DNA from: Syntrophorhabdaceae bacterium
Lineage (GTDB): Bacteria; Desulfobacterota; Syntrophorhabdia; Syntrophorhabdales; Syntrophorhabdaceae
Length of the DNA: 64,000 nt
Direction of reading: 5' to 3'
NCBI GenBank assembly: GCA_963665295.1
Contig: OY762209.1
Location: 2,080,001 to 2,144,000, forward strand
In this document: one piece after another, positions 40,702 to 64,000 of the stretch
How positions within the stretch are numbered: position 1 is the first letter of the stretch
Layout: each line of letters begins with the position of its first letter
The notes under the pieces: generated by a model
What the model was told of the DNA's origin: nothing
The model's input: only the letters and a program-made list of their open reading frames with translations
Database searches by the model: none
Made by a program: the position numbers and the translations under genes

Positions 40702-42177
40702 ATGTCAAATCATCCGGCCATTTCCGTCTGCATGATCGTGAAGAACGAGGAAACGAACCTCCCGAGACTCCTCGCGTCGATAAGGGGGCTTGCGGACGAG
40801 GTCATTGTAGTCGACACGGGCTCGACGGATAGAACGGTCGAAATAGCGAAAAGCTTCGGGGCGAAGACCTACCATTTCGAATGGTGTGACGATTTTTCCG
40901 CCGCGAGAAACGAGTCCCTGAAATATGCCACAGGGGATTATATCTTGTGGCTGGATGGCGACGACGAAATATCGGAGCAGGACCACCCGGCGATAAAGGA
41001 GCATCTGTTGGGACATCCCGGCTCCGCGGTCTACCTGAAAGTGGTAAGCATCGCGGAGGAGGGGCCCACCGAAGCCATGCAGCTTCGCATGTTTCCGAAC
41101 CTCAAGGGCCTCGCGTTTTCCGGCAAGGTTCATGAACAGATTCACGACGCTCTTGCTGAAAAGGGCGTGCCTTTCACGGGCTGCCATGCCCGGGTGACCC
41201 ATTTCGGGTATCACACGCGGGAGGCTCTCGAGGAAAAGCTGAAAAGAAACAAGGCGATCCACGAGAAGGAATTGGAGGAAAATCCGAACAACCTCCATTC
41301 CCTCTTTTTTGCCGCAAGGGCCCTGAAGGGCCTGAACGAGGTCGAAGAGGCCCTGGAATACATGGAAAAGGTTCTTGTCCTGGGGAATGAGAGCAGGGAC
41401 AGGGATGTGCTCATGGTCACCGTCGTTGACATGGCGGACGCCCTCTGCAAGTTTGGGAGGGACGGTGAAGCCATATCGCTCCTTGAACGATGGAAGACTC
41501 CACTCAAGAATCCCCCTCTCCTGGGTTACACCCTCGGGGAACTCTATTTTAAGGGCAGAGACTACGGGAAGGCATATGTCGCCCTCGCTCCTCTCAAAAA
41601 CGAAAAGTTTGAAAATGAGATCGTGCCCCTTCTCGTGGGGGGGACGCGATTCACCATGCTGAGGGACCTCGGGGTATCCGCCCTTTTCGCGGGCGACCTG
41701 ACCCTGGCGGAGGAATGTTTTACGAACTGCCTTGAGATGGACGATCAGAATGACGAGGCATGGCATTACCTCTCTCTCACAAAAGAACGGAACTCGGACA
41801 TGAAAGGCGCCGTCGAAGTATGCCGCAAAGGACTTGCAACCATTAAAGACAATGGGTTTCTTAAGAAACGGCTCTTCCTCAGCCTTATCAGGAACAATGA
41901 ACCGGAGCAGGCCCTTAAGGAATACGACGGCCTGAACGGACAGAAGGATAAGGACCTGGAGGTAATGGCCGGCATGTTCCATATACATTGTATAAGACTC
42001 GACATGGACGGCATAAACCGGTTTTACTCGCTTATCCGCAGGGAACTGTCCCTTTCCCCCGATGTATTTCCCGAGGGACTGGACCGTGTAAGGAAGACCC
42101 TTCCTCTTTTAGGGGAGGCGAAGGCCGGAGAATTATTTGAATCGGGAATTTCGCACTTGCTCCGGATAAACCCTTAA
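40702..42177 (+). CDS. GT2 glycosyltransferase with TPR tail, candidate flagellin O-glycosyltransferase
   Basis: SVCMIVKNEE, VDTGSTD, DFSAARN, WLDGDD, VHEQ, HFGY; immediately upstream of fliC. Confidence 0.9.
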   Translation: MSNHPAISVCMIVKNEETNLPRLLASIRGLADEVIVVDTGSTDRTVEIAKSFGAKTYHFEWCDDFSAARNESLKYATGDYILWLDGDDEISEQDHPAIKEHLLGHPGSAVYLKVVSIAEEGPTEAMQLRMFPNLKGLAFSGKVHEQIHDALAEKGVPFTGCHARVTHFGYHTREALEEKLKRNKAIHEKELEENPNNLHSLFFAARALKGLNEVEEALEYMEKVLVLGNESRDRDVLMVTVVDMADALCKFGRDGEAISLLERWKTPLKNPPLLGYTLGELYFKGRDYGKAYVALAPLKNEKFENEIVPLLVGGTRFTMLRDLGVSALFAGDLTLAEECFTNCLEMDDQNDEAWHYLSLTKERNSDMKGAVEVCRKGLATIKDNGFLKKRLFLSLIRNNEPEQALKEYDGLNGQKDKDLEVMAGMFHIHCIRLDMDGINRFYSLIRRELSLSPDVFPEGLDRVRKTLPLLGEAKAGELFESGISHLLRINP

Positions 42178-42200
42178 GTTTGCCGGCCACGTGACGATAA
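42174..42200 (+). promoter_or_regulatory. Sigma28 promoter of flagellin
   Basis: TTAAGTTT-N11-GACGATAA, about 105 bp upstream of fliC. Confidence 0.85.
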
Positions 42201-42304
42201 CTGTATTTAGAAGGGATAGAAAAGAAAGGAGGTGCAGAGGATAAACCTTTCTTATCCCAAAAAAAGGGCACGATGCCCAATAAAAAACAAACAGGAGGTT
42301 TACC

Positions 42305-43441
42305 ATGGCTTTTAGAGTTAACACGAACGTATCGTCCTTAAACACTCAGAGATGGTTAGGAATATCAGGAACAGCTCAGGCGAAATCACTGGAAAGACTC
42401 TCAAGCGGCTTCAAAATCAACAAGGCGTCCGATGACGCGGCAGGTATTGCAATCGCCACAAAGTTGAACGTGAAATCGGTCTCCATGACAAAGGCCATCG
42501 ACAACGGCAACCAGGCACTCTCCATGTTGCAGACGGCAGAAGGTGGCATCGACCAGATCTCCAACATCCTCACAAGGCTTAAAGAACTTGCCACCCAGGC
42601 GGCTTCCGACAACACCACGGACAGAACGGCACTGGACAATGAGAGGAGCTACCTCGAGACGGAAATCGGCAACATAAGAAGCAACACTACCTACGGCACA
42701 ACCGGTCTCCTTCAGGGCGGCGCGACTATCGCTGCGGGCGCTTCCGGCACCAGCTTGACTGCAGGCGGCGGTATCGCGAACATCGATGTCACCTCAGCGG
42801 CAGCGGGCGTCTTCACGTTGACCAACACGGCCCTTACGGCCGGCGCAGGAACCATTACCCTGGCAGGAGCAGGCGGAACACAGTCAGTGTACGTAAGCGG
42901 CGTCACCGGATTTAACGAAGTGACGGCTAACTTCTCGACCCTTGGCGTGAAAGTAACGGTCAACGCGGCCCTGGCAGTGAATGCCGGCGCAAGTGGAGCC
43001 ACAAGTGGGTTCACAGTAAGTACGGGTTCATCTTCCTTCACGTACCAGATGGGTGACACAAACCAGACCATGAACCAGGTTGGCGTGTCCATAATGGACT
43101 TCGCCGTTACCGGTTCGGTCCTCAACATTACATCAGGTTCCAACGTTGCCAGCAAGTCGTCGGCACAGGCCTACATGACCTTGATCGATACGGCCGTCGG
43201 CAACCTCACTACCCAGCGAGGTAACCTCGGTGCTTCCATGAACCAGATCAGCTACCACGTGGCGAACCTGAGTACCATGAGTGAGAATGTCAAGTCGTCG
43301 GTATCGACGATCAAGGACGCAGACTTCGCTGCCGAGATGGCGGATTTCACGAAGAACCAGATTCTGCAGCAGTCCGGTGTAGCAATGCTCGCTCAGGCAA
43401 ACTCTCTCCCGCAGCAGGTACTCTCTCTGCTGAAAGGGTAA
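42305..43441 (+). CDS. fliC: Flagellin
   Basis: RVNTN, ERLSSGFKINKASDDAAG, IKDADFAAEM, AMLAQAN..PQQVLSLL. Confidence 0.98.
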   Translation: MAFRVNTNVSSLNTQRWLGISGTAQAKSLERLSSGFKINKASDDAAGIAIATKLNVKSVSMTKAIDNGNQALSMLQTAEGGIDQISNILTRLKELATQAASDNTTDRTALDNERSYLETEIGNIRSNTTYGTTGLLQGGATIAAGASGTSLTAGGGIANIDVTSAAAGVFTLTNTALTAGAGTITLAGAGGTQSVYVSGVTGFNEVTANFSTLGVKVTVNAALAVNAGASGATSGFTVSTGSSSFTYQMGDTNQTMNQVGVSIMDFAVTGSVLNITSGSNVASKSSAQAYMTLIDTAVGNLTTQRGNLGASMNQISYHVANLSTMSENVKSSVSTIKDADFAAEMADFTKNQILQQSGVAMLAQANSLPQQVLSLLKG

Positions 43442-43460
43442 GGGATAACAACGGAAACAG

Positions 43461-43486
43461 GCCCCCTTCCCTCACGGGAGGGGGGC
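43461..43486 (+). terminator. GC-rich hairpin after fliC (terminator or mRNA stabiliser)
   Basis: GCCCCCTTCCC-TCAC-GGGAGGGGGGC, 11-bp stem with one G:U pair; weak U tail. Confidence 0.65.
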
Positions 43487-43508
43487 ACATTTGATTAGGG
43501 AGCAGACC

Positions 43509-43850
43509 ATGCTGGTGGATACGAAAAACATGATTTCGGACTTTGATTTCACCGCTGCCCCTGCGCCGAAAGCGAAGGAAGCCAGAAGAGCGGCGACCCC
43601 TCAGGAGGGGGCTGCCGATATTGCAAAGGTAAGTGAAGAGACGTTAAAGAAGATAGAAAACATGATCAAGGAGTTTGGTTCGTCGGACAAGGTGAGCATG
43701 CATTACGACAGGGACATCGACAGGGTAGTGGTGACAATTTCGAGCGGAGAGACTCAGGAGGTAATCAGGCAGATCCCCTCAGCTGAGTTTGTGTCTTTCT
43801 TGAAGAATTTCAACCAGATGCTGGGGTTGATGGTCAACAGGAGGTTATAG
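43509..43850 (+). CDS. flaG: Flagellar protein FlaG
   Basis: VVVTI..ETQEVIRQIPS, GLMVNRR; between fliC and fliD. Confidence 0.9.
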   Translation: MLVDTKNMISDFDFTAAPAPKAKEARRAATPQEGAADIAKVSEETLKKIENMIKEFGSSDKVSMHYDRDIDRVVVTISSGETQEVIRQIPSAEFVSFLKNFNQMLGLMVNRRL

Positions 43851-43852
43851 GG

Positions 43853-45574
43853 ATGAGCGGAACCGTATCCATGACCGGGCTTGTGAGCAATACCAACTGG
43901 TCGAGTCTTATTGATTCCATTATAAATGCGGAGAGGGCGTCTACGGAAAACCCCCTGACTGAGAGCAAGAACGCCTACCAGTTAAAGCTTACCGCGTGGC
44001 AGTCCTTCAATACGAAGCTTTCCGCTCTCACGGACTACATCGACAGCAATAAGCTCAACAAGACCGCCGGATACGGGGTCTACACATCTTCCCTCACGTC
44101 AAGCGACACGTCCGTCACCCCGTCGAGCGTGCTCAGCGTCTCGGTGGGCTCGTTGAGCGGGCCCGGTAAATATTCGATAGAGGTCTCGCAACTGGCCAAG
44201 GCGGAGAAGATATCGAGCGACGCCTTTACGTCGAACTCCACCGACCTCGCGTTGGCGGGAGATATTGTGGTCAACAACAAGGTGGTGACGATTCAGACCG
44301 GTGATAACCTGAATACCGTCGCTGCAAGGATAAACAACGCCGGTGCGGGAGTCACCGCCACGGTGCTCAAGGTGTCCGATTCGGAATACAGGCTGTCTCT
44401 GGAATCGAATACCACGGGAGCGACAGGGATGTCCCTCAGGAACGGCGGTTCCACGGACATTCTCGAATCTCTGAAGGTGCGCAGTTCCACCCAAACCCTC
44501 GCCCATGCGTCAGGCTCCGACGCCCTGAGCGACACGTATACGAATACGACGGGCGCAGTGGGAACGCTCATGGGCCTCACGTCGGCGCAGAGCGGGACCA
44601 TAAAGATCAACGGCACCGATGTGGCAGTCAACCTCGGCACGGATTCCCTGCAGACCATAGTGGACAATATCAATCTGGCCGCCCCTGCGGGCGTGACCGC
44701 TTCCATCGATACCGTGACCTCGGGGAGCGCCACTTCGTACCGGCTGAAACTTACGAATACGGGTGTATCCGACCTGGTGGACAGCAACAACATCCTCGAG
44801 TCCCTGGGGGTAGTCAAGTCTTCCGCAACCAATACTCTGAGAACGGGCCAGGACGCGTCCCTCAAAATCGACGGCTACGCCATCACATCGTCTTCGAATT
44901 CCATTACGACTGCCATAAGCGGGTTAACCCTTAACCTTGCCGGCACGAACGTGGGCAAGCCTGTCGATTTGACGATCAGCCAGAATACCACCCAGATAGC
45001 CACCAATGCCTCGACCCTGGTAACGGCCATAAACAACGTCATTTCCTATATCAACGAACAGAATACCTTCAAAAGCAGCACGGGCAGCAGCTCTACCGCG
45101 ACGCAGAATCCCCTGTTCGGTGATACCACCCTGGCATTGGTGAAGAGAAGTATCTCATCTGCCGTATTCACCACGGTGAGTGGAAATACCGCCTATACCA
45201 ATGCATCGGACATCGGGATCAGCTATCAGAAGGATGGGACGCTGGCCGTGGACAGCGCCAAGCTGTCGACCGCCCTCTCAACGAACAGCGACGAGACGGT
45301 GAAGGTGCTCAAGAACCTGGGGGATAACCTGTACAGCAATCTCCACGGTTTTGTGGACCCCGGCTCAGGGACATTGGTGCTCGCCACCAAGTCCATACAA
45401 AACAAGATGACCAGCATCGATACGAAGATATCCGACCTGGAAGCGCGGTACGAGAGAGAACGGGTGTTGATGGAGACCAAGTTCAATGCGCTCGAGGTGT
45501 TGATCAACCAGTCCAACACCACGAAGAGCTGGCTTACCCAGCAGTCTACCGTGTTGCAGAATACAAAGAGCTGA
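43853..45574 (+). CDS. fliD: Filament cap protein FliD
   Basis: GLVSN, VSQLAKA, GQDA, KFNALE; Ser/Thr-rich. Confidence 0.93.
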   Translation: MSGTVSMTGLVSNTNWSSLIDSIINAERASTENPLTESKNAYQLKLTAWQSFNTKLSALTDYIDSNKLNKTAGYGVYTSSLTSSDTSVTPSSVLSVSVGSLSGPGKYSIEVSQLAKAEKISSDAFTSNSTDLALAGDIVVNNKVVTIQTGDNLNTVAARINNAGAGVTATVLKVSDSEYRLSLESNTTGATGMSLRNGGSTDILESLKVRSSTQTLAHASGSDALSDTYTNTTGAVGTLMGLTSAQSGTIKINGTDVAVNLGTDSLQTIVDNINLAAPAGVTASIDTVTSGSATSYRLKLTNTGVSDLVDSNNILESLGVVKSSATNTLRTGQDASLKIDGYAITSSSNSITTAISGLTLNLAGTNVGKPVDLTISQNTTQIATNASTLVTAINNVISYINEQNTFKSSTGSSSTATQNPLFGDTTLALVKRSISSAVFTTVSGNTAYTNASDIGISYQKDGTLAVDSAKLSTALSTNSDETVKVLKNLGDNLYSNLHGFVDPGSGTLVLATKSIQNKMTSIDTKISDLEARYERERVLMETKFNALEVLINQSNTTKSWLTQQSTVLQNTKS

Positions 45575-45606
45575 TGCGCCTTCAGACAGGAGGAGATAGA
45601 TAATAG

Positions 45607-46047
45607 ATGAATCCCTACAGGGCCTATTCAGCGGCAGACAGCAACGTGAATGGAGACAGCAAGCCGAAGCTTCTCCTTAAAGTCTACCAGTCGATGCTTG
45701 ATAAGATCGATATCGTGAAGTCCGCCATTGAAAGAAGAGATTTTGAAAGCAAATACGACGGGCTCACGAAGCTCACCACTGTGCTCGAAATCCTCGATTC
45801 TTCCCTGGATATGACCCAGGGTGGCGACGTGTCAAAGAACCTTTCCGACCTTTATCAGTACCTTGTAAGGAGGCTTGTGTCCGTCCATATAAGCCAGGAC
45901 GTCAAGATCCTTGATGAATGCAGGTCCATTATAGTTCTTCTCAATGAAGGGTTTGTCGCTGCCTATGAAAAAGAGGCCAAAGAGAAGGGTCCTGCATCGG
46001 GAGACAGCGAACCCGGCAATGCGCCTTTCTCCTGCCGTATGGTGTAA
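45607..46047 (+). CDS. fliS: Flagellin export chaperone FliS
   Basis: YRAY, SLDMTQGGDVSKNLSDLYQY. Confidence 0.92.
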   Translation: MNPYRAYSAADSNVNGDSKPKLLLKVYQSMLDKIDIVKSAIERRDFESKYDGLTKLTTVLEILDSSLDMTQGGDVSKNLSDLYQYLVRRLVSVHISQDVKILDECRSIIVLLNEGFVAAYEKEAKEKGPASGDSEPGNAPFSCRMV

Positions 46048-46155
46048 TGAGCCCGGAGTCTCTCCGTGCTCCTCCGAATGTCTTGTCCTCCTCTCGCGCC
46101 GGGTCTCAAGGGTTACGGCCTGAACCGCGGGAAGTCCCCCGAATGGAACAAAGGT

Positions 46156-46692
46156 TCAGCCGCCGGCCGGCGTTTTCCGGGCAATCATATTGAGGCTGAT
46201 GAGTTCCCCTTTAAACCTCATGCTGCTGGTATCGTTGAAAATGCCGAATTCAGCGACCCTCCTGACGTCGCCGAAACCGGCTTCGCTCAGGTATGTATAG
46301 AGGAATTCCTGATTCAAACCGACATAATGGTAGTCGTGGGCATCCGTATGTCCTCCGAAGATCATGCGCATCACGTGAAACCGCTCAATCGGGTTCAACA
46401 GGTTTCTCGCGGAAAACAACCGGGCGAGAACGTCAAGATCGGGAACACTGACGTACAATGTTCCGGAAGGCTTCAAAACCCGGTTCCATTCCCTGAGGGC
46501 AGACAATAGCTCACCGTTATAATCGAAATGCTCCACCACATGGGACGCATAGATGTCATCAAAGGAAGCATCGGAAAAGCGGGACAGGTCATTGGCGTTG
46601 CCGAGATGATCGACATGGGGACCGGGAAGGACTTCCATAATTTCCCATCCTGGTGCGGCGGCGTTGCCGCCCACGTGTAATCTCCGTGCCAT
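46156..46692 (-). CDS. Class I SAM-dependent methyltransferase
   Basis: RLHVGG, IYASHVVEH, RVLKPSGTLYVSVPD. Confidence 0.88.
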   Translation of the reverse strand: MARRLHVGGNAAAPGWEIMEVLPGPHVDHLGNANDLSRFSDASFDDIYASHVVEHFDYNGELLSALREWNRVLKPSGTLYVSVPDLDVLARLFSARNLLNPIERFHVMRMIFGGHTDAHDYHYVGLNQEFLYTYLSEAGFGDVRRVAEFGIFNDTSSMRFKGELISLNMIARKTPAGG

Positions 46693-46821
46693 ATGCGCCC
46701 CCTTGAACGACCTGTGAAAGACTATATCGCGATTGAAACCGTCCGTGCAAGTGTTATCGTGCGGGATGCCCGGGCCAATCGCGCAGCCGGTTGTTTTTAC
46801 CGGATCTTATGGCTCCGCCGG

Positions 46822-46850
46822 TTGTAAAAGGTTTCTCAAAAATGTACAAT
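46822..46850 (+). promoter_or_regulatory. Candidate sigma70 promoter of the first GT41 gene
   Basis: TTGTAA-N17-TACAAT ending 10 bp before ATG 46861; no RBS. Confidence 0.45.
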
Positions 46851-46860
46851 TATCAGCGAC

Positions 46861-49077
46861 ATGGCAAAGAAAGTGAACAATACGAGGCCGGGAAACACCA
46901 ATGCCGCCGCTCTGCCCGGAATCCTTCGCTCGGCTGTTCAATGCTACGAAAAAGGGGATATATCCGGAGCGGAGACTTTTGCCCGATCAGCCATAAGGAT
47001 AGACCCCGGGAACGGTGATGCCCTGCTCATCCTGGGGGTGTGCGCCTATGGGATGAGGCGCTACGACGAGGCCTGCGAGCATTACCGGCACGCCTTGAGA
47101 ACATCGAAGTCGCCACTCGTTTACAACAACCTCGGGGCCGCCCTCAAGGAGTCGGGCAGGCTTGACGAGGCGATTGAGGCGTACGGACAGGCCTTGTTGC
47201 TCAAGCCCGACTATCCCGAGGCATACTGCAATCTCGGCAACGCGCTGAAAGACAAAGGAGATGTTGAGAGGGCCATAGGCGCCTACAACCAATCTCTTGG
47301 ACTCAACCCGTTGAACCCGGGGACGCTCAACAATCTCGGACACGCCTTGAGAGACGCGGGACGATTCGCCGAGGCAATAGAGGCCTACCGCAAGGCCATT
47401 CAACTGAACCCTGGTTTTGCCGACGCCTACCGGAGCCTCGGCATTGCCCTCAGGGAGTCGGGCAGGCTCGACGAGGCGATCGGGGCCTACCGGCAGGCCC
47501 TCGCGCTGAAGCCCGACTATCCCGAAGCGTATTACAATCTTGGGAACGCCCTGAGAGAGAAAGGAAGCACGGATGAAGCCATAGACGCTTACCGGCAGGC
47601 CCTCGCGCTGAAGCCCGACTATCCCGAGCCGTACTGCAACCTGGGAAACGCCCTGAGGGAGAAGGGGGATATAGAAGGGGCCGTAAGCGCCTGCCGGCAG
47701 GCTGCAGCCATGGCCCCCGGCTTTGCCGAAGCCTACAGCAATCTCGGTAATGCCTTGAAAGACCAGGGAAGGATAGAGGAAGCGATAGAGGCCTACGAAC
47801 AGGCGGTCAGACTGAACCCCCGACTCCTGGAAGCGCACAGCAACCTGATTTATTCGAGGCAGTTTCTTCCCGGTATCACTCTGGAGAGGATATTGGAGGA
47901 TCACCGGCAATGGAATGCGGTTCATTGCACGCGCTATGGGGAGCGGCGGGATTCCTTTGGAAATTCGAGGGACCCCGGCCGGGTACTCACCCTGGGGTTT
48001 GTCTGCGGTGATTTCAGAATGCATCCTGTCGGATATTTCCTGATACGGATATTCGAGGCCCTGGCCAAAGAGGATGTGAGGATTGTCTGTTACGCAAACC
48101 AGAAGGCCGGGGACGATCTGACCTCGCGTTTCAGGGCCGCGGCATCCGCGTGGAGGGATATCTATCATGTCTCCGACGATGAAGCCTGCCACATGGTCGC
48201 GAAGGACCATGTGGACATACTCTTCGATCTTACCGGGCATATCGAAAACAACCGCCTGGCCATATTCGCGCGAAAACCCGCGCCTGTCCAGATTACATGG
48301 GCCGGTTATATGGCGACCACAGGGATGGATGCCATGGACTATATAATCGGCGACCCGAATGAGATATGGGAAGGAGCGGAGAAATACTATACGGAAAAAG
48401 TCATAAGAATGCCTGACTCCTTTGTCTGCTACGAAGCCCCCCCGTATTCACCGGCTGTGTCACCTCTTCCTGCCCTGTCAAGGGGGTATGTCACTTTCGG
48501 CTGCTTCAATATATTGTGCAAGATTTCCCCCCAGGTGATCGCGGTGTGGAGGGATATCTTTGTCCGCCTTCCCCGTTCCAGACTCGTGCTCAAGACAAGA
48601 GAGTTGAGTTGCCGCAGCACCAGGGAACGATACCTCGGGCTCCTCGGCACCTATGGGATCGATCCGCACAGGGTAGACCTTATCGGCAGGACGCCTCACA
48701 AAGAACATATGGAATCTTACGGCGAAATCGATATCGCCCTGGACACTTTTCCCTTCTCGGGAAGCACTACCACGCTGGAATCGCTTTGGATGGGCGTGCC
48801 GGTGATCACCCTGCCCGGTGAGACCTTTGCCGGCCGTCATTCACTCAGTTTCCTTTCTTCCGTGGGCGTCAGGGAGACGATTGCCCGCGATGCGCAGGAC
48901 TTTGCGGAAATCGCGGTGGGCCTTGCCGGGGATATCCCCCGTCTCGCTCGTCTGCGCGCCTCCTTACGGGACAGGTTTGTGTCGTCACCTCTCTGTGACG
49001 GGACAAAGTTTGCCCGCCGTCTTATGGAAGAACTGCGGACGGTCTGGTCTTTTTGGTGTGGAGACCAAAGGACCTGA
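46861..49077 (+). CDS. TPR + GT41 glycosyltransferase, SPINDLY-like (copy 1)
   Basis: About 9 TPRs; DFRMHPVGYF, DLTGH, FGCFN..CKI, DTFPFSGSTTT, WMGVP. Confidence 0.9.
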   Translation: MAKKVNNTRPGNTNAAALPGILRSAVQCYEKGDISGAETFARSAIRIDPGNGDALLILGVCAYGMRRYDEACEHYRHALRTSKSPLVYNNLGAALKESGRLDEAIEAYGQALLLKPDYPEAYCNLGNALKDKGDVERAIGAYNQSLGLNPLNPGTLNNLGHALRDAGRFAEAIEAYRKAIQLNPGFADAYRSLGIALRESGRLDEAIGAYRQALALKPDYPEAYYNLGNALREKGSTDEAIDAYRQALALKPDYPEPYCNLGNALREKGDIEGAVSACRQAAAMAPGFAEAYSNLGNALKDQGRIEEAIEAYEQAVRLNPRLLEAHSNLIYSRQFLPGITLERILEDHRQWNAVHCTRYGERRDSFGNSRDPGRVLTLGFVCGDFRMHPVGYFLIRIFEALAKEDVRIVCYANQKAGDDLTSRFRAAASAWRDIYHVSDDEACHMVAKDHVDILFDLTGHIENNRLAIFARKPAPVQITWAGYMATTGMDAMDYIIGDPNEIWEGAEKYYTEKVIRMPDSFVCYEAPPYSPAVSPLPALSRGYVTFGCFNILCKISPQVIAVWRDIFVRLPRSRLVLKTRELSCRSTRERYLGLLGTYGIDPHRVDLIGRTPHKEHMESYGEIDIALDTFPFSGSTTTLESLWMGVPVITLPGETFAGRHSLSFLSSVGVRETIARDAQDFAEIAVGLAGDIPRLARLRASLRDRFVSSPLCDGTKFARRLMEELRTVWSFWCGDQRT

Positions 49078-49141
49078 TCTCCGTCTTGCCCCACGGTTCC
49101 GCCTCCGCGAACAATCACGAAACTACCGGACTCCCCCCCGT

Positions 49142-49157
49142 TGGCATCATTGTTGCA
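49142..49157 (+). promoter_or_regulatory. Sigma54 promoter upstream of GT41 copies 2-4
   Basis: TGGCAT-CATTG-TTGCA in the intergenic gap. Confidence 0.8.
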
Positions 49158-49260
49158 TGGTTCAAAAGGCAGGGAGTGGAATGCCCGGAGGAGGAACTAT
49201 GGATGACGACGCGGCACATGGACAGACCGGAGGTTCAGAGACCCCCATGGAGGGTCTCTG

Positions 49261-51372
49261 TTGAATAAACGAGGCAGGCAGGCCCATGGGTCTCCCGGCA
49301 TGAACGTCGAACTCGAAAAGGCGCTTCGATATCATAGATCGGGCCGGTTCGAGATGGCGGAGCCTATCTACCGCAATATACTCGTCGCGGACCCGGACCA
49401 TCCGGATGCGCTCCACCTCCTCGGCGTCCTTGCCCACCAGACGGGAAGGCACGATATTGCCATAGAACTGATAGGGAAGGCTATCCGCAATGATCCCCAT
49501 GCGCCTCAGTATTATGACAATATGGGAAATGCCTGTGCGTCTCTCGGCAGGCTGGAGGAGGCCGTCTCCTGTTACCAATCGGCCCTGAGACTCAGGCCGG
49601 ACTCCGCGGGCGCCCTGAGCAATCTCGCAAACGTGCTGAAATCCCTCGGCAGGCTGGAGGAAGCCGTCTCTTGCTACGAAAGGGCCATGGCTTTGGAACC
49701 GGGTCTGGCGGAACCCTGCAACAATCTGGGTAACCTGCTCAAGGCGCTGGGCAGGATCGGCGAGGCTATCGACCTTTTCAGAAAGGCCGTGAAGTTGAAA
49801 CCGGGTTACGCCGAGGCCCACAACAACCTCGGGGTGGCGCTTCACGACCAGGGAAAGGCGGACGAGGCATCCGTCTCATTCCGGAAGGCCCTTGATCTGA
49901 AACCGGATCTGGCCGAGGTCCACAACAACCTGGGCAACCTCCTCAAAGACCAGGGGAACGTCATGGAGGCTATCTCTTCCATCAGAAGGGCCCTGGAATT
50001 ACAACCGGGTTATGCGGAGGCCTGCAATAACATGGGCCTTGCCCTCGTCGACCTTGGAGAGATCGAAGGGGCTGTGTCCCTCTATGCGCGGGCTCGCGAA
50101 CTGAAACCCGACAACCCGGGATACCATTCGAACTATCTTCTGGGTCTCCATTACAGCGAGAAATACGACAGGAAGGTCTTATCCGGGGAGGCAATGGAAT
50201 GGGGCAGGAAACACGGCTCCCGGTCCGGTTCCCCCAGGCCTTTCACCAATACGGCGGACCCCGGCCGCAGGATCAGGGTGGGTTACGTGTCCGGTGATTT
50301 CCGCAGGCACCCCGTAGGCTATTTTATCGGTCCCATACTCGCGTGTCATGACCGGGACATGTTCGAGGTCTACTGCTACGCCAACCAGCATGAGTCCGAT
50401 GACCTTACACGGCGATTTCAGTCGCTGCCCGTTCACTGGCGGGGGATCGCGGATCTTCCCGATGAATCGGCGGGGGCCCTGATCGTGGAAGACGGCATCG
50501 ACATCCTCGTGGACCTTTCAGGGCATACGGCGAGAAACCGGCTCCTCCTGTTTGCAGAAAAACCGGCTCCGGTCCAGGCGACCTGGATCGGGTATTCCGA
50601 CACCACGGGCCTCGGCGCAATCGATTTCATCATTGCAGACAGACACGTGATACCGGAGGAAGACAGGACACTCTACACGGAAAGACCGGTGAGACTCCCC
50701 CACTCCTACCTCTGCTATTCGCCTCCCGCATACGCCCCGGAAGAAAACGGACTTCCCGCCCAACGCAACGGGCATATTACCTTCGGCTCTTTCAATAACA
50801 TTGCCAAGGTGAGCCTTACCGCCATAGAGACATGGTCGAAGGTCCTCCGGGAGGTCCCCGACTCGAGGCTCTGCGTCAAGGCCTCCGTCCTGGACGTGCA
50901 GGCCCTCAAAGGCAAGTACCTGGAGTTTTTCGCCATGAACGGGATCGGGGAAGACAGGATAGACGTGGCGGGGAGATCGCCGAACCACCGGGAACTGCTT
51001 GTCGGTTACGGGAATATCGATATCGCCCTCGACACGTTCCCTTACGCAGGGACCACCACAACGGCCGAGGCCCTTTGGATGGGCGTGCCCGTGGTCACCC
51101 TCGCCGCAGGCGCCTTTGTGGGCAGGGTGGGGGGCAGCCTGCTCTCCACGGTGGGGCTGAGTGAGTTCGTGGCCCGCACCTCCGATGAGTACATCGCAAT
51201 AGCCGCGGCGCTGGCCGGAGACCGGGAAAGACTCGTCGGCCTTCGTTCAACCCTTCGCCGTAAAATGAAGGAATCCCCCCTGTGCGACGGGAAAACGTTT
51301 ACCCGGGACCTGGAAGGCCTCTACCGCGGCATGTGGCGGCAGTGGTCCGGGAGAAAGGAGGATTCCCTTTGA
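49261..51372 (+). CDS. TPR + GT41 glycosyltransferase, SPINDLY-like (copy 2)
   Basis: TPRs; DFRRHPVGYF, DLSGHT, FGSFNNIAKV, DTFPYAGTTTT. Confidence 0.92.
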   Translation: MNKRGRQAHGSPGMNVELEKALRYHRSGRFEMAEPIYRNILVADPDHPDALHLLGVLAHQTGRHDIAIELIGKAIRNDPHAPQYYDNMGNACASLGRLEEAVSCYQSALRLRPDSAGALSNLANVLKSLGRLEEAVSCYERAMALEPGLAEPCNNLGNLLKALGRIGEAIDLFRKAVKLKPGYAEAHNNLGVALHDQGKADEASVSFRKALDLKPDLAEVHNNLGNLLKDQGNVMEAISSIRRALELQPGYAEACNNMGLALVDLGEIEGAVSLYARARELKPDNPGYHSNYLLGLHYSEKYDRKVLSGEAMEWGRKHGSRSGSPRPFTNTADPGRRIRVGYVSGDFRRHPVGYFIGPILACHDRDMFEVYCYANQHESDDLTRRFQSLPVHWRGIADLPDESAGALIVEDGIDILVDLSGHTARNRLLLFAEKPAPVQATWIGYSDTTGLGAIDFIIADRHVIPEEDRTLYTERPVRLPHSYLCYSPPAYAPEENGLPAQRNGHITFGSFNNIAKVSLTAIETWSKVLREVPDSRLCVKASVLDVQALKGKYLEFFAMNGIGEDRIDVAGRSPNHRELLVGYGNIDIALDTFPYAGTTTTAEALWMGVPVVTLAAGAFVGRVGGSLLSTVGLSEFVARTSDEYIAIAAALAGDRERLVGLRSTLRRKMKESPLCDGKTFTRDLEGLYRGMWRQWSGRKEDSL

Positions 51373-54261
51373 GCAGGACCGACAGAACCCACGCGGACGA
51401 ACTCGGCAGGGCCCTTCAATACCATCAGGCGGGTCAGTTCCTGATGGCGGAGCCCATTTACCGGAAGATACTCGCCGCCAATCCCGATCACGCGGACGCC
51501 CTTCACCTCCTCGGCGTCCTTGCCCACCAGGTGGGACGGCACGACATTGCAATCGAGTTGATAGGGCGGGCCATCCGCAATAACCCGCGGGCGGCCCATT
51601 ATCATGACAACATGGGAAATGCCTACACTGCCCTCGGCAGACTGGAAGAGGCGGTCTCTTCTTACAGGCGGGCCCTCGAGATCAAGCCTGATTATGCGGG
51701 AGCGTGCAATAACCTCGCGAATGCGCTGAAAGCCCTGGGCAGACCGGATGAGGCATTTTTCTACTATGAAAGGGCCGTCACGCTGAAACCGGACATGGCC
51801 GAAGCGTACTGCAACCTGGGCAACCTGTCAAAGGACCGGGGAGAGACGGACGAGGCGATCCGTTTTCTTGACAGGGCCATTGCCCTCAATCCCGGTTATG
51901 CCGAGGCATACTACAGCCTGGGACTCGTGCTCTACGATCAGGGGAAGGCGGACGAGGCCCTTGCCCGATACCGGCAGGCCGTTAACCTGAAGCCTGACTA
52001 TGCCGAGGCATACAATAACCTCGGGATCGCCCTTTTTGACCGGGGAGAGACGGAAGAAGCAATCTCCTGTTACAGGAAAGCCCTTGCCGTAAAACCGGAT
52101 ATGGCCGATGTCTGCAATAACCTGGGAAACGCGCTGAAGTCCCTCGGTAGGATGGATGAGGCCATGTCGTCATTTCAGTTGGCTCGCGAACTGAAACCCG
52201 ACAACCCGGGATACCATTCGAACTATCTTCTGGGTCTCCATTACAGCGAGAAATACGACAGGAAGGTCTTATCCGGGGAGGCAATGGAATGGGGCAGGAA
52301 ACACGGCTCCCGGTCCGGTTCCCCCAGGCCTTTCACCAATACGGCGGACCCCGGCCGCAGGATCAGGGTGGGTTACGTGTCCGGTGATTTCCGCAGGCAC
52401 CCCGTAGGCTATTTTATCGGTCCCATACTCGCGTGTCATGACCGGGACATGTTCGAGGTCTACTGCTACGCCAACCAGCATGAGTCCGATGACCTTACAC
52501 GGCGATTTCAGTCGCTGCCCGTTCACTGGCGGGGGATCGCGGATCTTCCCGATGAATCGGCGGGGGCCCTGATCGTGGAAGACGGCATCGACATCCTCGT
52601 GGACCTTTCAGGGCATACGGCGAGAAACCGGCTCCTCCTGTTTGCAGAAAAACCGGCTCCGGTCCAGGCGACCTGGATCGGGTATTCCGACACCACGGGC
52701 CTCGGCGCAATCGATTTCATCATTGCAGACAGACACGTGATACCGGAGGAAGACAGGACACTCTACACGGAAAGACCGGTGAGACTCCCCCACTCCTACC
52801 TCTGCTATTCGCCTCCCGCATACGCCCCGGAAGAAAACGGACTTCCCGCCCAACGCAACGGGCATATTACCTTCGGCTCTTTCAATAACATTGCCAAGGT
52901 GAGCCTTACCGCCATAGAGACATGGTCGAAGGTCCTCCGGGAGGTCCCCGACTCGAGGCTCTGCGTCAAGGCCTCCGTCCTGGACGTGCAGGCCCTCAAA
53001 GGCAAGTACCTGGAGTTTTTCGCCATGAACGGGATCGGGGAAGACAGGATAGACGTGGCGGGGAGATCGCCGAACCACCGGGAACTGCTTGTCGGTTACG
53101 GGAATATCGATATCGCCCTCGACACGTTCCCTTACGCAGGGACCACCACAACGGCCGAGGCCCTTTGGATGGGCGTGCCCGTGGTCACCCTCGCCGCAGG
53201 CGCCTTTGTGGGCAGGGTGGGGGGCAGCCTGCTCTCCACGGTGGGGCTGAGTGAGTTCGTGGCCCGCACCTCCGATGAGTACATCGCAATAGCCGCGGCG
53301 CTGGCCGGAGACCGGGAAAGACTCGTCGGCCTTCGTTCAACCCTTCGCCGTAAAATGAAGGAATCCCCCCTGTGCGACGGGAAAACGTTTACCCGGGACC
53401 TGGAAGGCCTCTACCGCGGCATGTGGCGGCAGTGGTGCGGGAGAAAGGAGGATTCCCTTTGAGCAGGACCGACAGAACCCACGCGGACGAACTCGGCAGG
53501 GCCCTTCAATACCATCAGGCGGGTCAGTTCCTGATGGCGGAGCCCATTTACCGGAAGATACTCGCCGCCAATCCCGATCACGCGGACGCCCTTCACCTCC
53601 TCGGCGTCCTTGCCCACCAGGTGGGACGGCACGACATTGCAATCGAGTTGATAGGGCGGGCCATCCGCAATAACCCGCGGGCGGCCCATTATCATGACAA
53701 CATGGGAAATGCCTACACTGCCCTCGGCAGACTGGAAGAGGCGGTCTCTTCTTACAGGCGGGCCCTCGAGATCAAGCCTGATTATGCGGGAGCGTGCAAT
53801 AACCTCGCGAATGCGCTGAAAGCCCTGGGCAGACCGGATGAGGCATTTTTCTACTATGAAAGGGCCGTCACGCTGAAACCGGACATGGCCGAAGCGTACT
53901 GCAACCTGGGCAACCTGTCAAAGGACCGGGGAGAGACGGACGAGGCGATCCGTTTTCTTGACAGGGCCATTGCCCTCAATCCCGGTTATGCCGAGGCATA
54001 CTACAGCCTGGGACTCGTGCTCTACGATCAGGGGAAGGCGGACGAGGCCCTTGCCCGATACCGGCAGGCCGTTAACCTGAAGCCTGACTATGCCGAGGCA
54101 TACAATAACCTCGGGATCGCCCTTTTTGACCGGGGAGAGACGGAAGAAGCGATCTCCTGTTACAGGAAAGCCCTTGCCGTAAAACCGGATATGGCCGATG
54201 TCTGCAATAACCTGGGAAACGCGCTGAAGTCCCTCGGCAGGATGGATGAGGCCATGTCGTC
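50091..54261 (+). repeat. Near-identical direct tandem repeat, period 2090 bp (50091-52171 vs 52181-54261)
   Basis: Same sequence at a 2090-bp offset, with duplicated ORF-track entries; differences seen at 51347/53437, 52061/54151, 52148/54238. Confidence 0.95.
51369..53462 (+). CDS. TPR + GT41 glycosyltransferase, SPINDLY-like (copy 3, mosaic)
   Basis: TTG start overlapping the upstream TGA, with AGGAG RBS; TPRs match copy 4 and the catalytic domain matches copy 2. Confidence 0.88.
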   Translation: MSRTDRTHADELGRALQYHQAGQFLMAEPIYRKILAANPDHADALHLLGVLAHQVGRHDIAIELIGRAIRNNPRAAHYHDNMGNAYTALGRLEEAVSSYRRALEIKPDYAGACNNLANALKALGRPDEAFFYYERAVTLKPDMAEAYCNLGNLSKDRGETDEAIRFLDRAIALNPGYAEAYYSLGLVLYDQGKADEALARYRQAVNLKPDYAEAYNNLGIALFDRGETEEAISCYRKALAVKPDMADVCNNLGNALKSLGRMDEAMSSFQLARELKPDNPGYHSNYLLGLHYSEKYDRKVLSGEAMEWGRKHGSRSGSPRPFTNTADPGRRIRVGYVSGDFRRHPVGYFIGPILACHDRDMFEVYCYANQHESDDLTRRFQSLPVHWRGIADLPDESAGALIVEDGIDILVDLSGHTARNRLLLFAEKPAPVQATWIGYSDTTGLGAIDFIIADRHVIPEEDRTLYTERPVRLPHSYLCYSPPAYAPEENGLPAQRNGHITFGSFNNIAKVSLTAIETWSKVLREVPDSRLCVKASVLDVQALKGKYLEFFAMNGIGEDRIDVAGRSPNHRELLVGYGNIDIALDTFPYAGTTTTAEALWMGVPVVTLAAGAFVGRVGGSLLSTVGLSEFVARTSDEYIAIAAALAGDRERLVGLRSTLRRKMKESPLCDGKTFTRDLEGLYRGMWRQWCGRKEDSL

Positions 54262-57975: not shown

Positions 57976-58033
57976 ATTGTTTTCTTTGCCTCCGGTTTTA
58001 TTGGTACTGCAATATGAGAGATAGTATCCTCCA

Positions 58034-58049
58034 TGCACAGATCATACCA
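58034..58049 (-). promoter_or_regulatory. Sigma54-like promoter of GT41 copy 5
   Basis: TGGTAT-GATCT-GTGCA with GG-N10-GC spacing. Confidence 0.55.
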
Positions 58050-58321
58050 TCCTTGTCCCCACGCCGGGCCTTTCACAGGCGCCCGCCCGCTTTCCTTTCT
58101 GCCGGTTCGGTGCGATGGGGTGGACGGTCTCCTCGCATTCGTTGAGGCCATGACACGCCAGCCAATATAATGACGCTTCGTTTTGCAAGGCGTGGCAAGA
58201 CAAAGAGGCTTTGGCGCCGGACGAAGACGCGGCTTTACGTTCGGCTGTATGCAGCAGTCCGACGCGTCCACCCTTGATGGGGAATCTTCGACGCCGTGGT
58301 TAGACCCTGCCGGGTGAACGA

Positions 58322-58337
58322 TGGCACGTTGATTGCA
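58322..58337 (+). promoter_or_regulatory. Sigma54 promoter of the giant multidomain gene
   Basis: TGGCAC-GTTGA-TTGCA, about 93 bp upstream of ATG 58430. Confidence 0.85.
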
Positions 58338-58429
58338 TCGATGAATCAGAGTAATACCGTGTGGAGTCCATGCCGGGTCAGGCCATGGGGAAACAGGGGT
58401 ACAGAATAAAACAGGAAGAGGGACAATAA

Positions 58430-61400
58430 ATGGCAAAGATTCATTGCATAGGGGACAGCCACGTATCTGTTTTTTCGGGTCTCAACGAGGTAGGACAGAA
58501 CTACGACGCACTGCCTTTCTTTAAAACGTACTGGCTTGGGCCGCACACGGCATACCATGCGATGGATATGCGCGACACCATAGACGCGCTGGTCACGGAG
58601 AACGTGAAGCCCGGGGATAGAATCCTCCTCTGTTTCGGTGAGATCGACTGCAGGGTCCACCTCCTGAAACAATCCGAATTAAGGAAAGAGCCTCTGGAAG
58701 ATATCGTCCGGGAATGCGTTGCCCGTTACTTCAAGGTCTTTCTCGCCCTCAAAGGGCAGGGATATGATCTCATTGCGTGGAATGTGCCTCCTCCAAGCGT
58801 CGAGGATATTGAATACTATGAATATTCCACGTATGGGAGCTATCCGGACCGACTCAAAGTGACCCGGATGTTCAACAATATGCTCGAGGAGCATTGTGCG
58901 GGAAGCGGCATTCCCTTCATTTCCATTTTCGAGCAACTCCTCGGCCCGGACGGGCTCACGAATCCTCTTCATTTCATGGATGAAATTCACCTCTCCCAGC
59001 GGTCCATGCCTCTTATTATGGAAGCCTTCAAGGCCGGTGGAATAGACCTCGGGTCTTGCGAGGAGATCCCCGACAACGACGGATACGTTCCGTCCGGGGA
59101 GGACGTGGTATCTGTCGCGGAGGATACGGGGACCCGGGCGCCCGACCACCAGATCATCAATGTTGTATACGGGCATCTCGCGGAATCGCAGATGCACGCC
59201 TTCTGCAAGGGCAACGCCTCGGTCGTCTGGTCGGCGGTCCCCCTCAAGGGATGCGACCTCTATGCATACCTCAACGCCTTCAGTTTCATGGGCAAACAGG
59301 ACGGCCTCGACGTGCTCCTCCTCTGGGAGCCCTACGTGGTGCTGCCGGGGCAATGGGATGATCAGGTATGGGCTCAATTCGACCGCATATTCACCCTGTA
59401 TAAGGCCCTTGAGAGAAAGGGACCGAATTTCAGGAGGGTCAGGGCCCCTCGCTCGGGCTGGGTCGTTCCCGTGGACGTTACCGAGGACCGGGAGGAACGG
59501 GAGAGGAAATACCCCCTCAAGGACCGCAGGAACGCCATATGCATGATCAACGGCCACAAGATCTCCGCCATACCGGGCGAGCTTTACTCGAAACGCTTCG
59601 ACGCGGCGAAATGGTTCCATGAAAATTCCGATATCCCCTTTGATATATACGGGACGCCCCCTTTCCCGCTGCCCAATTACATAGGCGCCCTTGACGCGGA
59701 CCGAAAACTGCCCACCATGGCCGGTTACATGTATTCCCTCTGTTTTGAGAACCTTTATCACCCTGCCTACTCATCGGGATACATAACGGAGAAGATACTT
59801 GACTGTCTCGAAACAAGGACGGTGCCCATCTATTTCGGGTGTTCCGACATCGAAAGGTACATACCGAAGGATTGCTTCATAGACTTCAGGGATTTCAAAG
59901 ATTTCAGCGACTTGAATGATTTCCTCGCCAACATGAGCCGGAAGAGGTATAAGAAGTATACCCACAGTATCGATCAGTGGGTAATGGAGGGCAACCTCCG
60001 GCAATATTCGTGGCAGGTCCTCTACGATGAACTGGTGAGCCTCCTCGATGAGACGGCCGGAAGAAAGAGCGCGTCCGTGGAAGAACGGGACGGGAAGGGC
60101 TGGATCTCCGGTATATCACCGGTTCTCAAGGACCGCCAATGGGTTCCTGCGGATGCGTCCGGAGTCTGGTCGTATGAGACCCTTGCCGCCACTATCCCTC
60201 CGGTGGTAGAGGTAATCACGGGTGAAGAGGAAGCAGGGCACGACCTGATGGAACGTCTTGGCGAAGTGAGTCCTGTTCCCGAAGAACGCGCCTTGAAGCT
60301 TCAGAAGATAAAGTCGGCAGATTGTTCCCTGAAGGCAGACTTTCTGAAGAAATTGCATGACGCCTTTGATCTCGACGTGTTCGTGGAAACCGGAACCGAT
60401 CTCGGCAATACAACCGATGAGGCTCAAGCGGTCTTCGATGAGGTTCACGCCATAGAATTGAGCCGGTCCCTTTATGAGAAGGCGGAGGACCGCTTCAAAG
60501 GCAGGACGAAGGTCCATGTCTATCACGGTGATGCCGTTTCACAACTCCCCAATGTCCTCACCCGGGCCCGGGGCAGGAAGGCGCTCCTGTGGCTCGACGC
60601 CCACTACAGCGAAGGGGTGACGGGAGCAGGGGCAAAGAATACGTCTATTATTGAAGAAATTACCCTCATAAAGGACTTAACCGTCAAGAATGAGATGTTT
60701 TTCCTTATCGATGACATAAGATTTTGTCAGGACTACATGGGCGCCACGCCGGAGGACCCGAGCCTCAGTGGCTACCCCACGGTCGCCCGGGTGTGCGATG
60801 CGATCCTTGGCATTGACGATTCATTTCAGTTTGCCGTGATGGGAGACGTTCTCCTTGCCTACCGGAAAAGAGCCGGCTTCCGGGTGTCGCCCGTGCTCCA
60901 CGCCTGCACGGTGTCGAGACTATTTGAAGGCGCCAATTTCCCGGAAGAGCAGGTCTTTAACGCGGAACAGGTGATCAGCGAGGCGGAAGGTATAGAACTG
61001 CGCGCGGTCCAGAGCCTCGTCAAAGACAACCTTGAGTCGGAAAACCTCAAGATTGGAGGCCACTACCGGCTGTGGCACGGCCTCACCCTTTGGGGCCGGA
61101 AACTCTATGACGAGGCATGCCTCGAATTTCTGACCGCCATGCAGACGGGTGTGAGACACTGGCGTCTCTACTGGTACATTGCGCGGAGCGCATTCATGGC
61201 GGACAACCCGGTCCTTGCCCGGAACGCCGCCAATGCAGCGCTGAATGCGGCCCCCGGGTTCAAGGAAGCAAGAAAGCTTCTCGAAGATCTGGATATGGGG
61301 GTCGCGGAATCCCCGGACGCGAAGGGAACGGCTTCCGGAGGCCATCTTGCCTCAGCGCTGTTCTTCCAGAATGAGGGGAGGTTCCCTGAAGCCATAGGCG

Positions 61401-64000: not shown

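Follow-up and report, generated by a model that had tools for sequence, protein, structure and literature searches.

A candidate flagellin glycosylation island in a Syntrophorhabdaceae bacterium, with a GmaR-like glycosyltransferase, SPINDLY-related GT41 genes and a domain-swap chimera

Flagellin glycosylation islands, GT2 enzymes that prime flagellin, flagellin transferases guided by tetratricopeptide repeats (TPRs) and, in silico, GT41 genes within such islands are already on record (PMC4875605), and it is against these systems that we describe a set of glycosyltransferase genes surrounding a flagellin gene in a Syntrophorhabdaceae bacterium; the stretch of DNA analysed, called the window below, is 64,000 nt long and corresponds to bases 2,080,001–2,144,000 of a single-contig 5.5-Mb genome. 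De Maayer and Cowan (2016) reported, from in silico data, GT41 genes of the 'SPINDLY family' (COG3914) in flagellin glycosylation islands of Enterobacteriaceae (PMC4875605). GmaR of Listeria monocytogenes (PDB 22ao, 7X9R) is presented, citing Shen et al. 2006, as a TPR-bearing flagellin O-N-acetylglucosamine (O-GlcNAc) transferase (PMC9638930), and in FlmG of Caulobacter crescentus the TPR domain is reported to bind flagellin and the GT-B domain to set the donor (PMC7591256; bioRxiv 10.1101/2022.03.25.485807). In the C. difficile CD0240–CD0244 and P. aeruginosa PA1088–PA1091 pathways, a GT2 enzyme is described as priming flagellin by putting one sugar (GlcNAc or deoxyhexose) on its Ser/Thr, and neighbouring genes add and methylate further groups (PMC11833859). 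Bacterial SPINDLY-like genes are said to be common and very few of them characterised (PMC10027727), and among the papers listed on flagellin with GT41 or SPINDLY none, as judged from titles and abstracts, examines a GT41 flagellin transferase by experiment, the one relevant paper being the in silico study (PMC4875605).

The block of genes in the window is, on balance, probably a glycosylation island within the flagellar late-gene locus, its enzymes being predicted from their families and surroundings to O-glycosylate flagellin in the cytoplasm before export; FliC is presumed to be the main acceptor, and other axial proteins are perhaps glycosylated as well. Gene content and order, family assignments and, in relatives, the position of the island between fliD/fliS and a response-regulator/motAB group are directly observed. 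What the locus adds to the known systems is that a GmaR-like enzyme, a GT10-bearing multi-enzyme, four old GT41 lineages whose pockets differ and a chimera freshly made by domain swapping occur together. The genes concerned are listed here, with GT41 membership judged by Pfam PF13844 (Glyco_transf_41, cut-off 25 bits) and lengths in amino acids (aa):

40702–42177, plus strand: GT2-TPR gene, 491 aa; Glycos_transf_2 at 2.3e-26 (residues 8–164), TPRs
42305–43441, plus strand: fliC, 378-aa flagellin; Flagellin_N 6.3e-30, Flagellin_C 3.8e-27
46156–46692, minus strand: small class I S-adenosylmethionine methyltransferase-like gene, 178 aa, convergent with fliS; Methyltransf_11, E 3.4e-9
46861–49077, plus strand: G1, TPR-GT41, 738 aa; PF13844 171.6 bits
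49261–51372, plus strand: G2, TPR-GT41, 703 aa; PF13844 182.7 bits
51282–53462, plus strand: G3, chimeric TPR-GT41; PF13844 182.6 bits
53372–55846, plus strand: G4, TPR-GT41, 824 aa, its TPR array longer than those of the other copies; PF13844 185.8 bits
55843–58038, minus strand: G5, divergent TPR-GT41, 731 aa, convergent with G4; PF13844 72.9 bits
58430 to window-equivalent 65041 (beyond the window end), plus strand: giant multi-enzyme, 2,203 aa

A first-pass annotation had described a GT2-TPR gene directly 5′ of fliC and, after fliS, a methyltransferase, five TPR-GT41 genes and a giant enzyme. Pfam agrees with the first placing (40702–42177, against a fliC start at 42305) and the giant gene is a genuine open reading frame (ORF); the methyltransferase gene is there, but on the minus strand, and all five TPR-GT41 genes do match PF13844 (72.9–185.8 bits), although G3 proved to be a chimera and G5 a divergent copy on the minus strand.

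In the mechanism proposed, the GmaR-like GT2-TPR enzyme, whose gene stands between fliW and fliC, would act as the conserved primer, by likeness to Listeria GmaR, and the TPR-GT41 proteins would be accessory protein O-glycosyltransferases gained by only some lineages. In each GT41 protein the TPR array would hold the acceptor peptide and the catalytic domain would set the donor sugar, a division of labour inferred here and taken from FlmG. The GT41 enzymes probably add different sugars, smaller than GlcNAc, at further sites or on further flagellins, different sugars being probable because the donor pockets differ and none of them has the L/R/C pattern of animal O-GlcNAc transferase (OGT); G1 and G2/G3 may take as donor a 6-deoxyhexose linked to guanosine diphosphate (GDP), such as fucose. 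Extension and methylation of the glycan would fall to the giant protein together with the small methyltransferase. A recent tandem duplication would have paired the G4 TPRs with the G2 catalytic domain, and this chimera points to acceptor and donor modules being reshuffled at the locus. The bolder proposal that the SPINDLY-type GT41 enzymes at this locus are protein O-(6-deoxyhexosyl)transferases (fucose included) acting on flagellar proteins, that among prokaryotic SPINDLY relatives they would be the first whose substrate is defined, and that new acceptor-donor pairings arise in nature by swapping of TPR and catalytic domains, with G3 as a swap met very soon after it took place, is tentative and rather doubtful as a whole.

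Compared with the described systems, the locus resembles the Enterobacteriaceae islands in having glycosyltransferases inserted in the flagellin locus, a SPINDLY-family GT41 and associated methyltransferase and sugar-nucleotide genes, and also in that function is predicted from sequence alone in both and gene content varies between strains (PMC4875605). The Enterobacteriaceae islands are described as holding one to three glycosyltransferases of a single family, with most of the GT41 proteins fused to a methyltransferase domain (PMC4875605), whereas the locus described here, in a Syntrophorhabdaceae-type anaerobe, holds a GmaR-like GT2-TPR protein, five separate TPR-GT41 proteins and a multi-enzyme of 2,203 aa that includes a GT10-like domain. 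The GT2-TPR protein is like GmaR in its GT domain (residues 4–196), in the TPRs that follow and in the place of its gene beside flagellin, the C-terminal likeness being one of layout only; GmaR is reported to be also the MogR anti-repressor and a thermosensor (PMC9638930). FlmG can be likened by architecture, as a soluble protein with N-terminal TPRs and a C-terminal GT-B domain that acts in the cytoplasm before export (PMC7591256), and the natural chimera G3 parallels the FlmG chimeras, which swap specificity; FlmG differs in its length (596 aa) and in transferring pseudaminic or legionaminic acid (PMC7591256; bioRxiv 10.1101/2022.03.25.485807), and this locus in having several coexisting paralogues with different pockets. 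The likeness to Arabidopsis SPINDLY (PDB 7Y4I, 8DTF) lies in TPRs joined to a GT41 catalytic domain that lacks the intervening domain of the animal enzyme, in an alignment of G1–G4 that is continuous over ~390 residues (301–322 bits) and keeps the H495 and K665 equivalents and, for G2 and G3, in the DTFPYAGTTTT string and a K/small/Y donor signature. SPINDLY differs in being a eukaryotic nucleocytoplasmic regulator, with hundreds of substrates according to PMC9715652 and PMC10027727; G1, G4 and G5 depart from its signature, and Thermobaculum OGT (TtOGT, PDB 5DJS) scores at least as high as SPINDLY for G2, G4 and G5. The C. difficile and P. aeruginosa pathways are similar in combining a GT2 primer with neighbouring modification genes (roles that are proposed here), but these islands are described as small (four to five genes) and free of GT41, and for their phospho-N-methylthreonine chemistry no counterpart was detected at this locus (PMC11833859). 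An identification of P. aeruginosa FgtA (PA1091) as a SPINDLY-type enzyme was considered and rejected as wrong, this protein being GT2 according to PMC11833859.

Among solved structures, the best match of the GT2-TPR protein is the GT domain of GmaR (22ao_A, E 2.8e-29, residues 4–196 against 8–203), followed by the peptide glycosyltransferase SunS (4.5e-22; the NCBIfam SunS family matches at 3.7e-26, below its cut-off), and TPR families match at ~185–420; the layout is that of GmaR, with a homologous GT-A domain, then TPRs, and the gene beside flagellin. By this analogy, the GT2-TPR protein is most likely a priming flagellin glycosyltransferase. Homologues (E ≤ 1e-20) are present in 32 of 60 family relatives, and a comparison of their places with Flagellin_N matches (found in 45 of the 60) puts 31 of the 32 within 5 kb of such a match on the same contig, with the exception of G063, which has no flagellin match; these relatives are kin and not independent of each other, 12 of 15 genera being represented. 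Thirteen of the homologues are GT2-TPR proteins (nine full-length matches; open frames of ~495–576 aa), and the other 19 are the N-terminal GT2 part of ORFs of 146–3,728 aa; because these ORFs are mostly longer than 1,000 aa and lie near flagellin, giant multi-domain glycan enzymes beside flagellin are a family trait. The conserved core enzyme is the GmaR-like GT2-TPR protein, not a GT41, with the GT41 genes as an add-on in few lineages, and the earlier naming of the system as GT41-based has to be given up, since the GT2-TPR core is near flagellin in 31 of 32 cases and GT41 is present in 4 of 59 family relatives.

The distribution of GT41 itself was counted among class relatives of at least 90% completeness, of which 10 of 76 (including the four of the own family) have PF13844 matches; G037, at 80% completeness, brings the carriers to eleven. 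G001, G024 and G047 each have GT41 and a Flagellin_N match less than 10 kb apart on one contig, a flagellin-type gene being within ~1.5 kb in G024 and G047, and in G024 the GT41 gene lies between two such genes; in G037 the distance is 21 kb within one continuous island. G010, G031, G036 and G079 are too fragmented for the linkage to be judged, and within the own family three of the four GT41-carrying relatives have GT41 beside flagellin, the fourth being too fragmented. In G001, of the same genus, the order is flgK-flgL-fliW-GT2TPR (61%)-fliC-flaG-fliD-fliS-small ORF-G5 orthologue (68%), with sugar genes (split transketolase, dehydratase-like, Fcl-like) coming next, and on another contig the giant orthologue (60%) stands beside the G1 orthologue (67%). 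In G037, of another family of the order, the genes run flgK-flgL-fliW-GT2TPR (47%; 513 aa)-fliC-fliD, then a GT10-like protein of 1,105 aa, sugar-nucleotide genes and a C-methyltransferase, then a GT10-like protein of 704 aa, a full-length G1 orthologue (54%), a response regulator, motA and motB; the G037 GT10-like gene is 47% identical to the giant gene. The island position and the pairing of a G1-type GT41 with GT10 have therefore been kept across two families, and the earlier placing of the island inside a flagellar locus, with linkage in relatives, is upheld by its recurrence in G001, G024, G047 and G037.

The five GT41 proteins contain 7, 6, 6, 9 and 5 TPR_1 stretches (G1 to G5) and 6, 4, 6, 8 and 4 N-L-G motifs at 34-residue spacing, a ladder that is predicted, by analogy, to hold an extended acceptor peptide. 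G1 is 42–45% identical to G2–G4 and 29% to G5. G3 is not an independent copy but a chimera that arose by recent tandem duplication, because the unit given here recurs 2,090 bp downstream with two mismatches:

50091–52147 and 52181–54237: two copies of the duplicated unit, period 2090, 2 mismatches, 99.9% identical

The first 289 residues of G3 are those of G4 and its last ~427 residues those of G2, so that the N-terminal TPRs of G4 are joined to the last TPR and catalytic domain of G2; its true start is probably downstream of 51282, as the frame from that position overlaps G2 by 91 nt. Logan contigs (runs from two studies) break at the repeat ends, the depth of the repeat unit is about twice that of the flanks (58.5 against 24.8–30.9, X1) and a 93-nt junction unitig at 52118–52210 is present among the Logan short-read contigs; the twofold depth and the junction show that the duplication is real in the sequenced populations, with the short-read support not fully independent, as one Logan run may be the source of the assembly. 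The G+C fraction is 0.57–0.60 across the GT41 genes against 0.53–0.54 across fliC-fliD, and the nearest catalytic domains beyond the order, at ~50% identity, come from metagenome-assembled genomes of Geobacteraceae; both observations fit an acquisition of the GT41 genes from outside. Metagenomic catalytic domains of the G5 type (55–62% identity) were also met fused to GT10 (P0006) or GT2 (P0042, P0062, P0072), and such fusions may be Rosetta-stone hints that GT41 enzymes work with transferases of these families.

The motifs DLxGH, FGSFNNxAK and DTFPYAGTTTT, which had been ascribed to copies 1–4 as SPINDLY-like, are more unevenly spread: DLxGH is indeed present in G1–G4, but the other two strings occur in G2 and G3 only, G1 having FGCFNILCK and DTFPFSGSTTT and G4 FGCFNNVSK and DTFPFAGNTTT, and G5 has none of the three. 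The catalytic domains alone were searched with HMMER against all solved chains, and pairwise scores, not a tree, were used (bits):

G1: SPINDLY 321.7, Thermobaculum OGT 312.6, human OGT 148, Xanthomonas OGT 157, HMW1C/NGT unlisted
G2 (= G3): SPINDLY 301.3, Thermobaculum OGT 325.7, human OGT 179, Xanthomonas OGT 130, HMW1C/NGT 49.5
G4: SPINDLY 316.3, Thermobaculum OGT 328.3, human OGT 181, Xanthomonas OGT 161, HMW1C/NGT 44.5
G5: SPINDLY 91.4, Thermobaculum OGT 99.3, human OGT 72, Xanthomonas OGT 58, HMW1C/NGT 45.3

Copies 1–4 are nearer to SPINDLY than to animal OGT (301–322 against 148–181 bits), as the first-pass annotation had held, and TtOGT is as close to them as SPINDLY is (313–328 bits). 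Closeness to HMW1C/NGT was not found, with 32.8–49.5 bits where listed against 91–328 for SPINDLY and TtOGT, and the NCBIfam search of G1–G5 returned no specific family, the matches being TPR families and a weak NGTferase hit (42–60 bits against a cut-off of 1000). The equivalents of the active-site His (H495) and the phosphate-binding Lys (K665) of SPINDLY are invariant in all five copies. According to Kumar et al., K689/A731/Y744 of SPINDLY and L866/R904/C917 of human OGT set the two enzymes apart (PMC10027727), and Zhu et al. attribute the size of the pocket to Y744 (PMC9715652). Read from HMMER alignments to chain 7y4i_A, which is numbered like the residues in these papers, and a five-way MAFFT alignment, the corresponding residues are:

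G1: K/S/F
G2 and G3: K/G/Y, the closest to SPINDLY
G4: R/Y/F
G5: I/M/W, with N at the place of T748

The first position of G5 is ambiguous, a Lys being present four residues later after a short insertion and placed at that position by MAFFT. The SPINDLY signature is absent from G4 and G5 and near-complete in G2/G3 only, and the animal pattern L/R/C is found in none of the five. To judge from these residues, G1 and G2/G3 could plausibly use a small sugar linked to GDP, and a SPINDLY-type donor is unlikely for G5; since the four signatures differ, fucose would be plausible as a donor for some copies only.

An alternative gives fucose a larger part, with the GT41 enzymes priming by means of GDP-fucose, each on one axial protein (FliC, FliD, FlgK, FlgL), and the giant protein extending and capping the O-fucose; we consider it unlikely. 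The K/G/Y of G2/G3 and the K/S/F of G1, together with the DTFPYAGTTTT string, identical in G2/G3 and SPINDLY, speak for it, and those of G4 and G5, which lack the signature, against it. The search for gmd and fcl elsewhere in the genome, which had been suggested as a check, gave an equivocal answer: gmd was found at 2.83 Mb, well above its cut-off (547.8 bits against 415), and three Fcl-like genes lie beside it, with a GT10-like gene next after the cluster, but all three Fcl-like proteins fall below the equivalog cut-off (228–269 bits against 500). Nor does the presence of gmd discriminate: the gene is at a distance of 0.7 Mb, and among class relatives 56 of 76 have it (8 of the 10 with GT41 and 48 of the 66 without); in G078, which carries five GT41 genes, it was not found. 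A GT10-like domain does travel with a G1-type GT41 in the window genome (G000), G001 and G037, and the characterised GT10 members are known to use GDP-fucose; a module common to FliD and FlgK (~105 aa, 53%) could be a common acceptor. Nevertheless, the conserved enzyme adjoining flagellin is the GmaR-like GT2 and not a GT41, and the four flagellin genes of this genome account for several enzymes as well as FliD, FlgK and FlgL do. In G001, transketolase and dehydratase-like orthologues of the gmd cluster (58–63% identical) and an Fcl-like one (~35% over a cut fragment) adjoin the G5 orthologue, an arrangement that ties the sugar pathway of the gmd cluster to the flagellar island. Around the gmd and Fcl-like genes themselves, a block of galE and split transketolase is exactly duplicated, with identical family scores (genome 2833082–2845088). 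In two family relatives (G057:C1:13494–14534 and G045:C32:1275–2312) gmd is found within ~10 kb of flagellin-type genes and of a giant GT2-bearing ORF, with no GT41; because of this proximity, there are hints that GDP-6-deoxyhexose flagellin glycans are a family habit independent of GT41.

Other observations weigh against the flagellin glycosylation island itself. The GT41 genes are sporadic, as the 10 of 76 class relatives indicate, and in G029, G077 and G078 (9, 20 and 50 contigs) they lie on contigs other than that of flagellin. Among 76 loci with the closest catalytic domains, many of them short, 6 have a flagellar gene within 10 kb and 70, cyanobacterial genomes among them, do not, so that GT41 is linked with flagellin in this order and in scattered other lineages but not throughout the clade. 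The sixth GT41 gene of the genome, at 1.846 Mb, has non-flagellar neighbours. The priming role given to the GT2-TPR protein would derive from its likeness to GmaR only; TtOGT, the closest solved bacterial relative of the GT41 copies, is an enzyme with no demonstrated activity as presented in PMC9715652; and the donor assignments would depend on three alignment positions, the first of which, in G5, changes with the placement of the insertion. The scattered linkage and the sixth gene also favour a reading in which the GT41 array acts on non-flagellar targets (motility regulators, in an OGT-like signalling, or pilins) and its location among motility genes is due to chance, and a cyanobacterial Ogt is indeed reported to be needed for pilin glycosylation (PMC9306852). 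We hold that reading to be improbable, since the same island position recurs with G1- and G5-type orthologues in G001 and G037, the family carriers in which linkage can be judged all have GT41 beside flagellin, and the array is flanked by dedicated glycan enzymes, not by regulators. Less probable still, to the point of being very unlikely, is that any of the TPR glycosyltransferases, G5 being the likeliest, is FlmG-like and transfers a nonulosonic acid of the pseudaminic or legionaminic type onto flagellin. The TPR plus GT-B architecture beside flagellin genes, the pocket of G5, unlike both SPINDLY and OGT, the lack of any match to Maf (PF01973, MAF_flag10/MptE-like) in the whole genome and a FlaF gene beside a GT41 gene in G024 would agree with it, as would a cluster at 3.18 Mb in which PseC-like, dehydratase, acetyltransferase and cytidylyltransferase-like genes accompany a NeuB-type synthase (212 bits). 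That cluster, however, lies 1 Mb off, and the Wzt-like ABC exporter at its beginning suggests a polysaccharide; G5 is clearly a GT41 member, FlmG being likened by architecture alone, and the genes beside the G5 orthologue of G001 (transketolase, dehydratase-like, Fcl-like) are not nonulosonate genes.

For the island as a GmaR-primed system with accessory GT41 enzymes, the giant protein is a candidate for glycan extension, and its domains, in order, are:

first in order: SGNH/GDSL-like, weak match, E 6.4e-4
residues 402–512: GT10-like, E 4e-14
near residue 650: methyltransferase-like, weak
near residues 980–1070: TPR
residues 1237–1370: NanM-type sugar O-methyltransferase, TIGR04371, 51.6 bits against 44
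residues 1490–1765: GT-A-like, a lead only, the nearest ESM Atlas clusters being named glycosyltransferases (0.93–0.98)
residues 1764–1976: GT2
residues 2050–2190: terminal TPR

The GT10 and methyltransferase content that had been attributed to it is thereby borne out (GT10-like and sugar O-methyltransferase domains), with GT2 in addition.

On the acceptor side, Ser plus Thr make up 23.5% of FliC, 28.8% of FliD, 22.9% of FlgK and 23.0% of FlgL, whereas proteins of this proteome have 11.3% on average and 22.5% at the 99th percentile; the richness noted earlier in their central regions is real but is a property of the whole proteins. High Ser plus Thr is usual for flagellar axial proteins, and the richness is therefore not diagnostic. 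The genome has four flagellin genes (378, 495, 495 and 485 aa), and the various enzymes could have more than one flagellin, or more than one site, to act on. The module common to FliD (213–316) and FlgK (374–482), of ~105 residues with 53% identity (E 2e-27), overlaps the Pfam Flagellin hook IN motif region of FliD and may serve both proteins as a surface or acceptor module; FliD and FlgK as acceptors are a guess. The two nearly identical 495-aa flagellin genes flank a DDE/IS630-type transposase gene (genome 2205808–2210524), the fourth (485 aa, at 5.48 Mb) adjoins a sigma-54 activator with a cyclic nucleotide (cNMP)-binding domain, and none of these three extra genes has a glycosyltransferase gene directly beside it.

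Several GT41 genes beside an obvious substrate, flagellin, offer a direct way to find donors and acceptors, and the natural variants K/G/Y, K/S/F, R/Y/F and I/M/W would allow a test of the three-residue donor code; with the fresh chimera G3, nature provides an equivalent of the domain swaps engineered in FlmG. A syntroph's flagellar cap protein reportedly signals to the methanogen partner, a finding said to be that of Shimoyama et al. in 2009; if true, a heavily decorated filament could, speculatively, bear on partner recognition in this syntrophic host family.

The first 35 kb of the window hold che genes, sigma-54 activators and flgF/G/A/H, and the late genes that frame the island follow:

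up to 37438: flgI, flgM, flgN
37439–39157, plus strand: flgK, hook-filament junction protein; Pfam FlgK_D1 6.3e-46
39154–40071, plus strand: flgL, hook-filament junction protein; Pfam Flagellin_N/C
40078–40314, plus strand: a gene which we take, from its ORF translation, to be csrA
40307–40696, plus strand: fliW; Pfam FliW 2.4e-22
43461–43486, plus strand: terminator-like hairpin 3′ of fliC, stem 11 bp with 9 G-C pairs
43491–43850, plus strand: flaG; Pfam FlaG 3.9e-16
43853–45574, plus strand: fliD; Pfam FliD_C 3.9e-37
45607–46047, plus strand: fliS; Pfam FliS 1.2e-24
49142–49156: sigma-54-like site with 1 mismatch, before G2
58322–58336, plus strand: sigma-54-type −24/−12 site with perfect consensus, ~95 nt 5′ of the giant gene

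The csrA-fliW genes are a flagellin-sensing partner-switch pair. An ORF at 46066–46509 (plus strand) was treated as spurious, since it matches no family and the methyltransferase gene overlaps it. The giant ORF is followed 3′ by two response regulators, a PilZ protein, motA and motB, and the whole block is therefore inside a motility supercluster. Sigma-54-type matches in the window number 10 against 2.84 expected, a count reached in 0 of 100 shuffles, and include those at 20026, 30963, 32112, 49142 and 58322, some of them before the flgF-type rod gene (32133) and before the gene at 30922. The sigma-28 consensus scan of the window was not above chance (17 matches against 10.6 expected, with 3 of 100 shuffles reaching 17), and a sigma-28-like site 5′ of fliC (42174–42199, 2 mismatches) is a lead only.

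The sixth TPR-GT41 gene (815 aa; genome 1845473–1847821, minus strand) has as neighbours MarC, an NAD synthase-like gene, a histidine kinase and a PMT_2 glycosyltransferase, and its closest relatives are in G024 (43% identity) and probably G047, in both of which they adjoin flagellin. FlaF is best known from Alphaproteobacteria, and the FlaF gene of G024, a relative of the same family (G024:C174 7568–7942, L090), stands in the flagellin locus and adjoins a TPR protein and a multi-glycosyltransferase of 1,674 aa.

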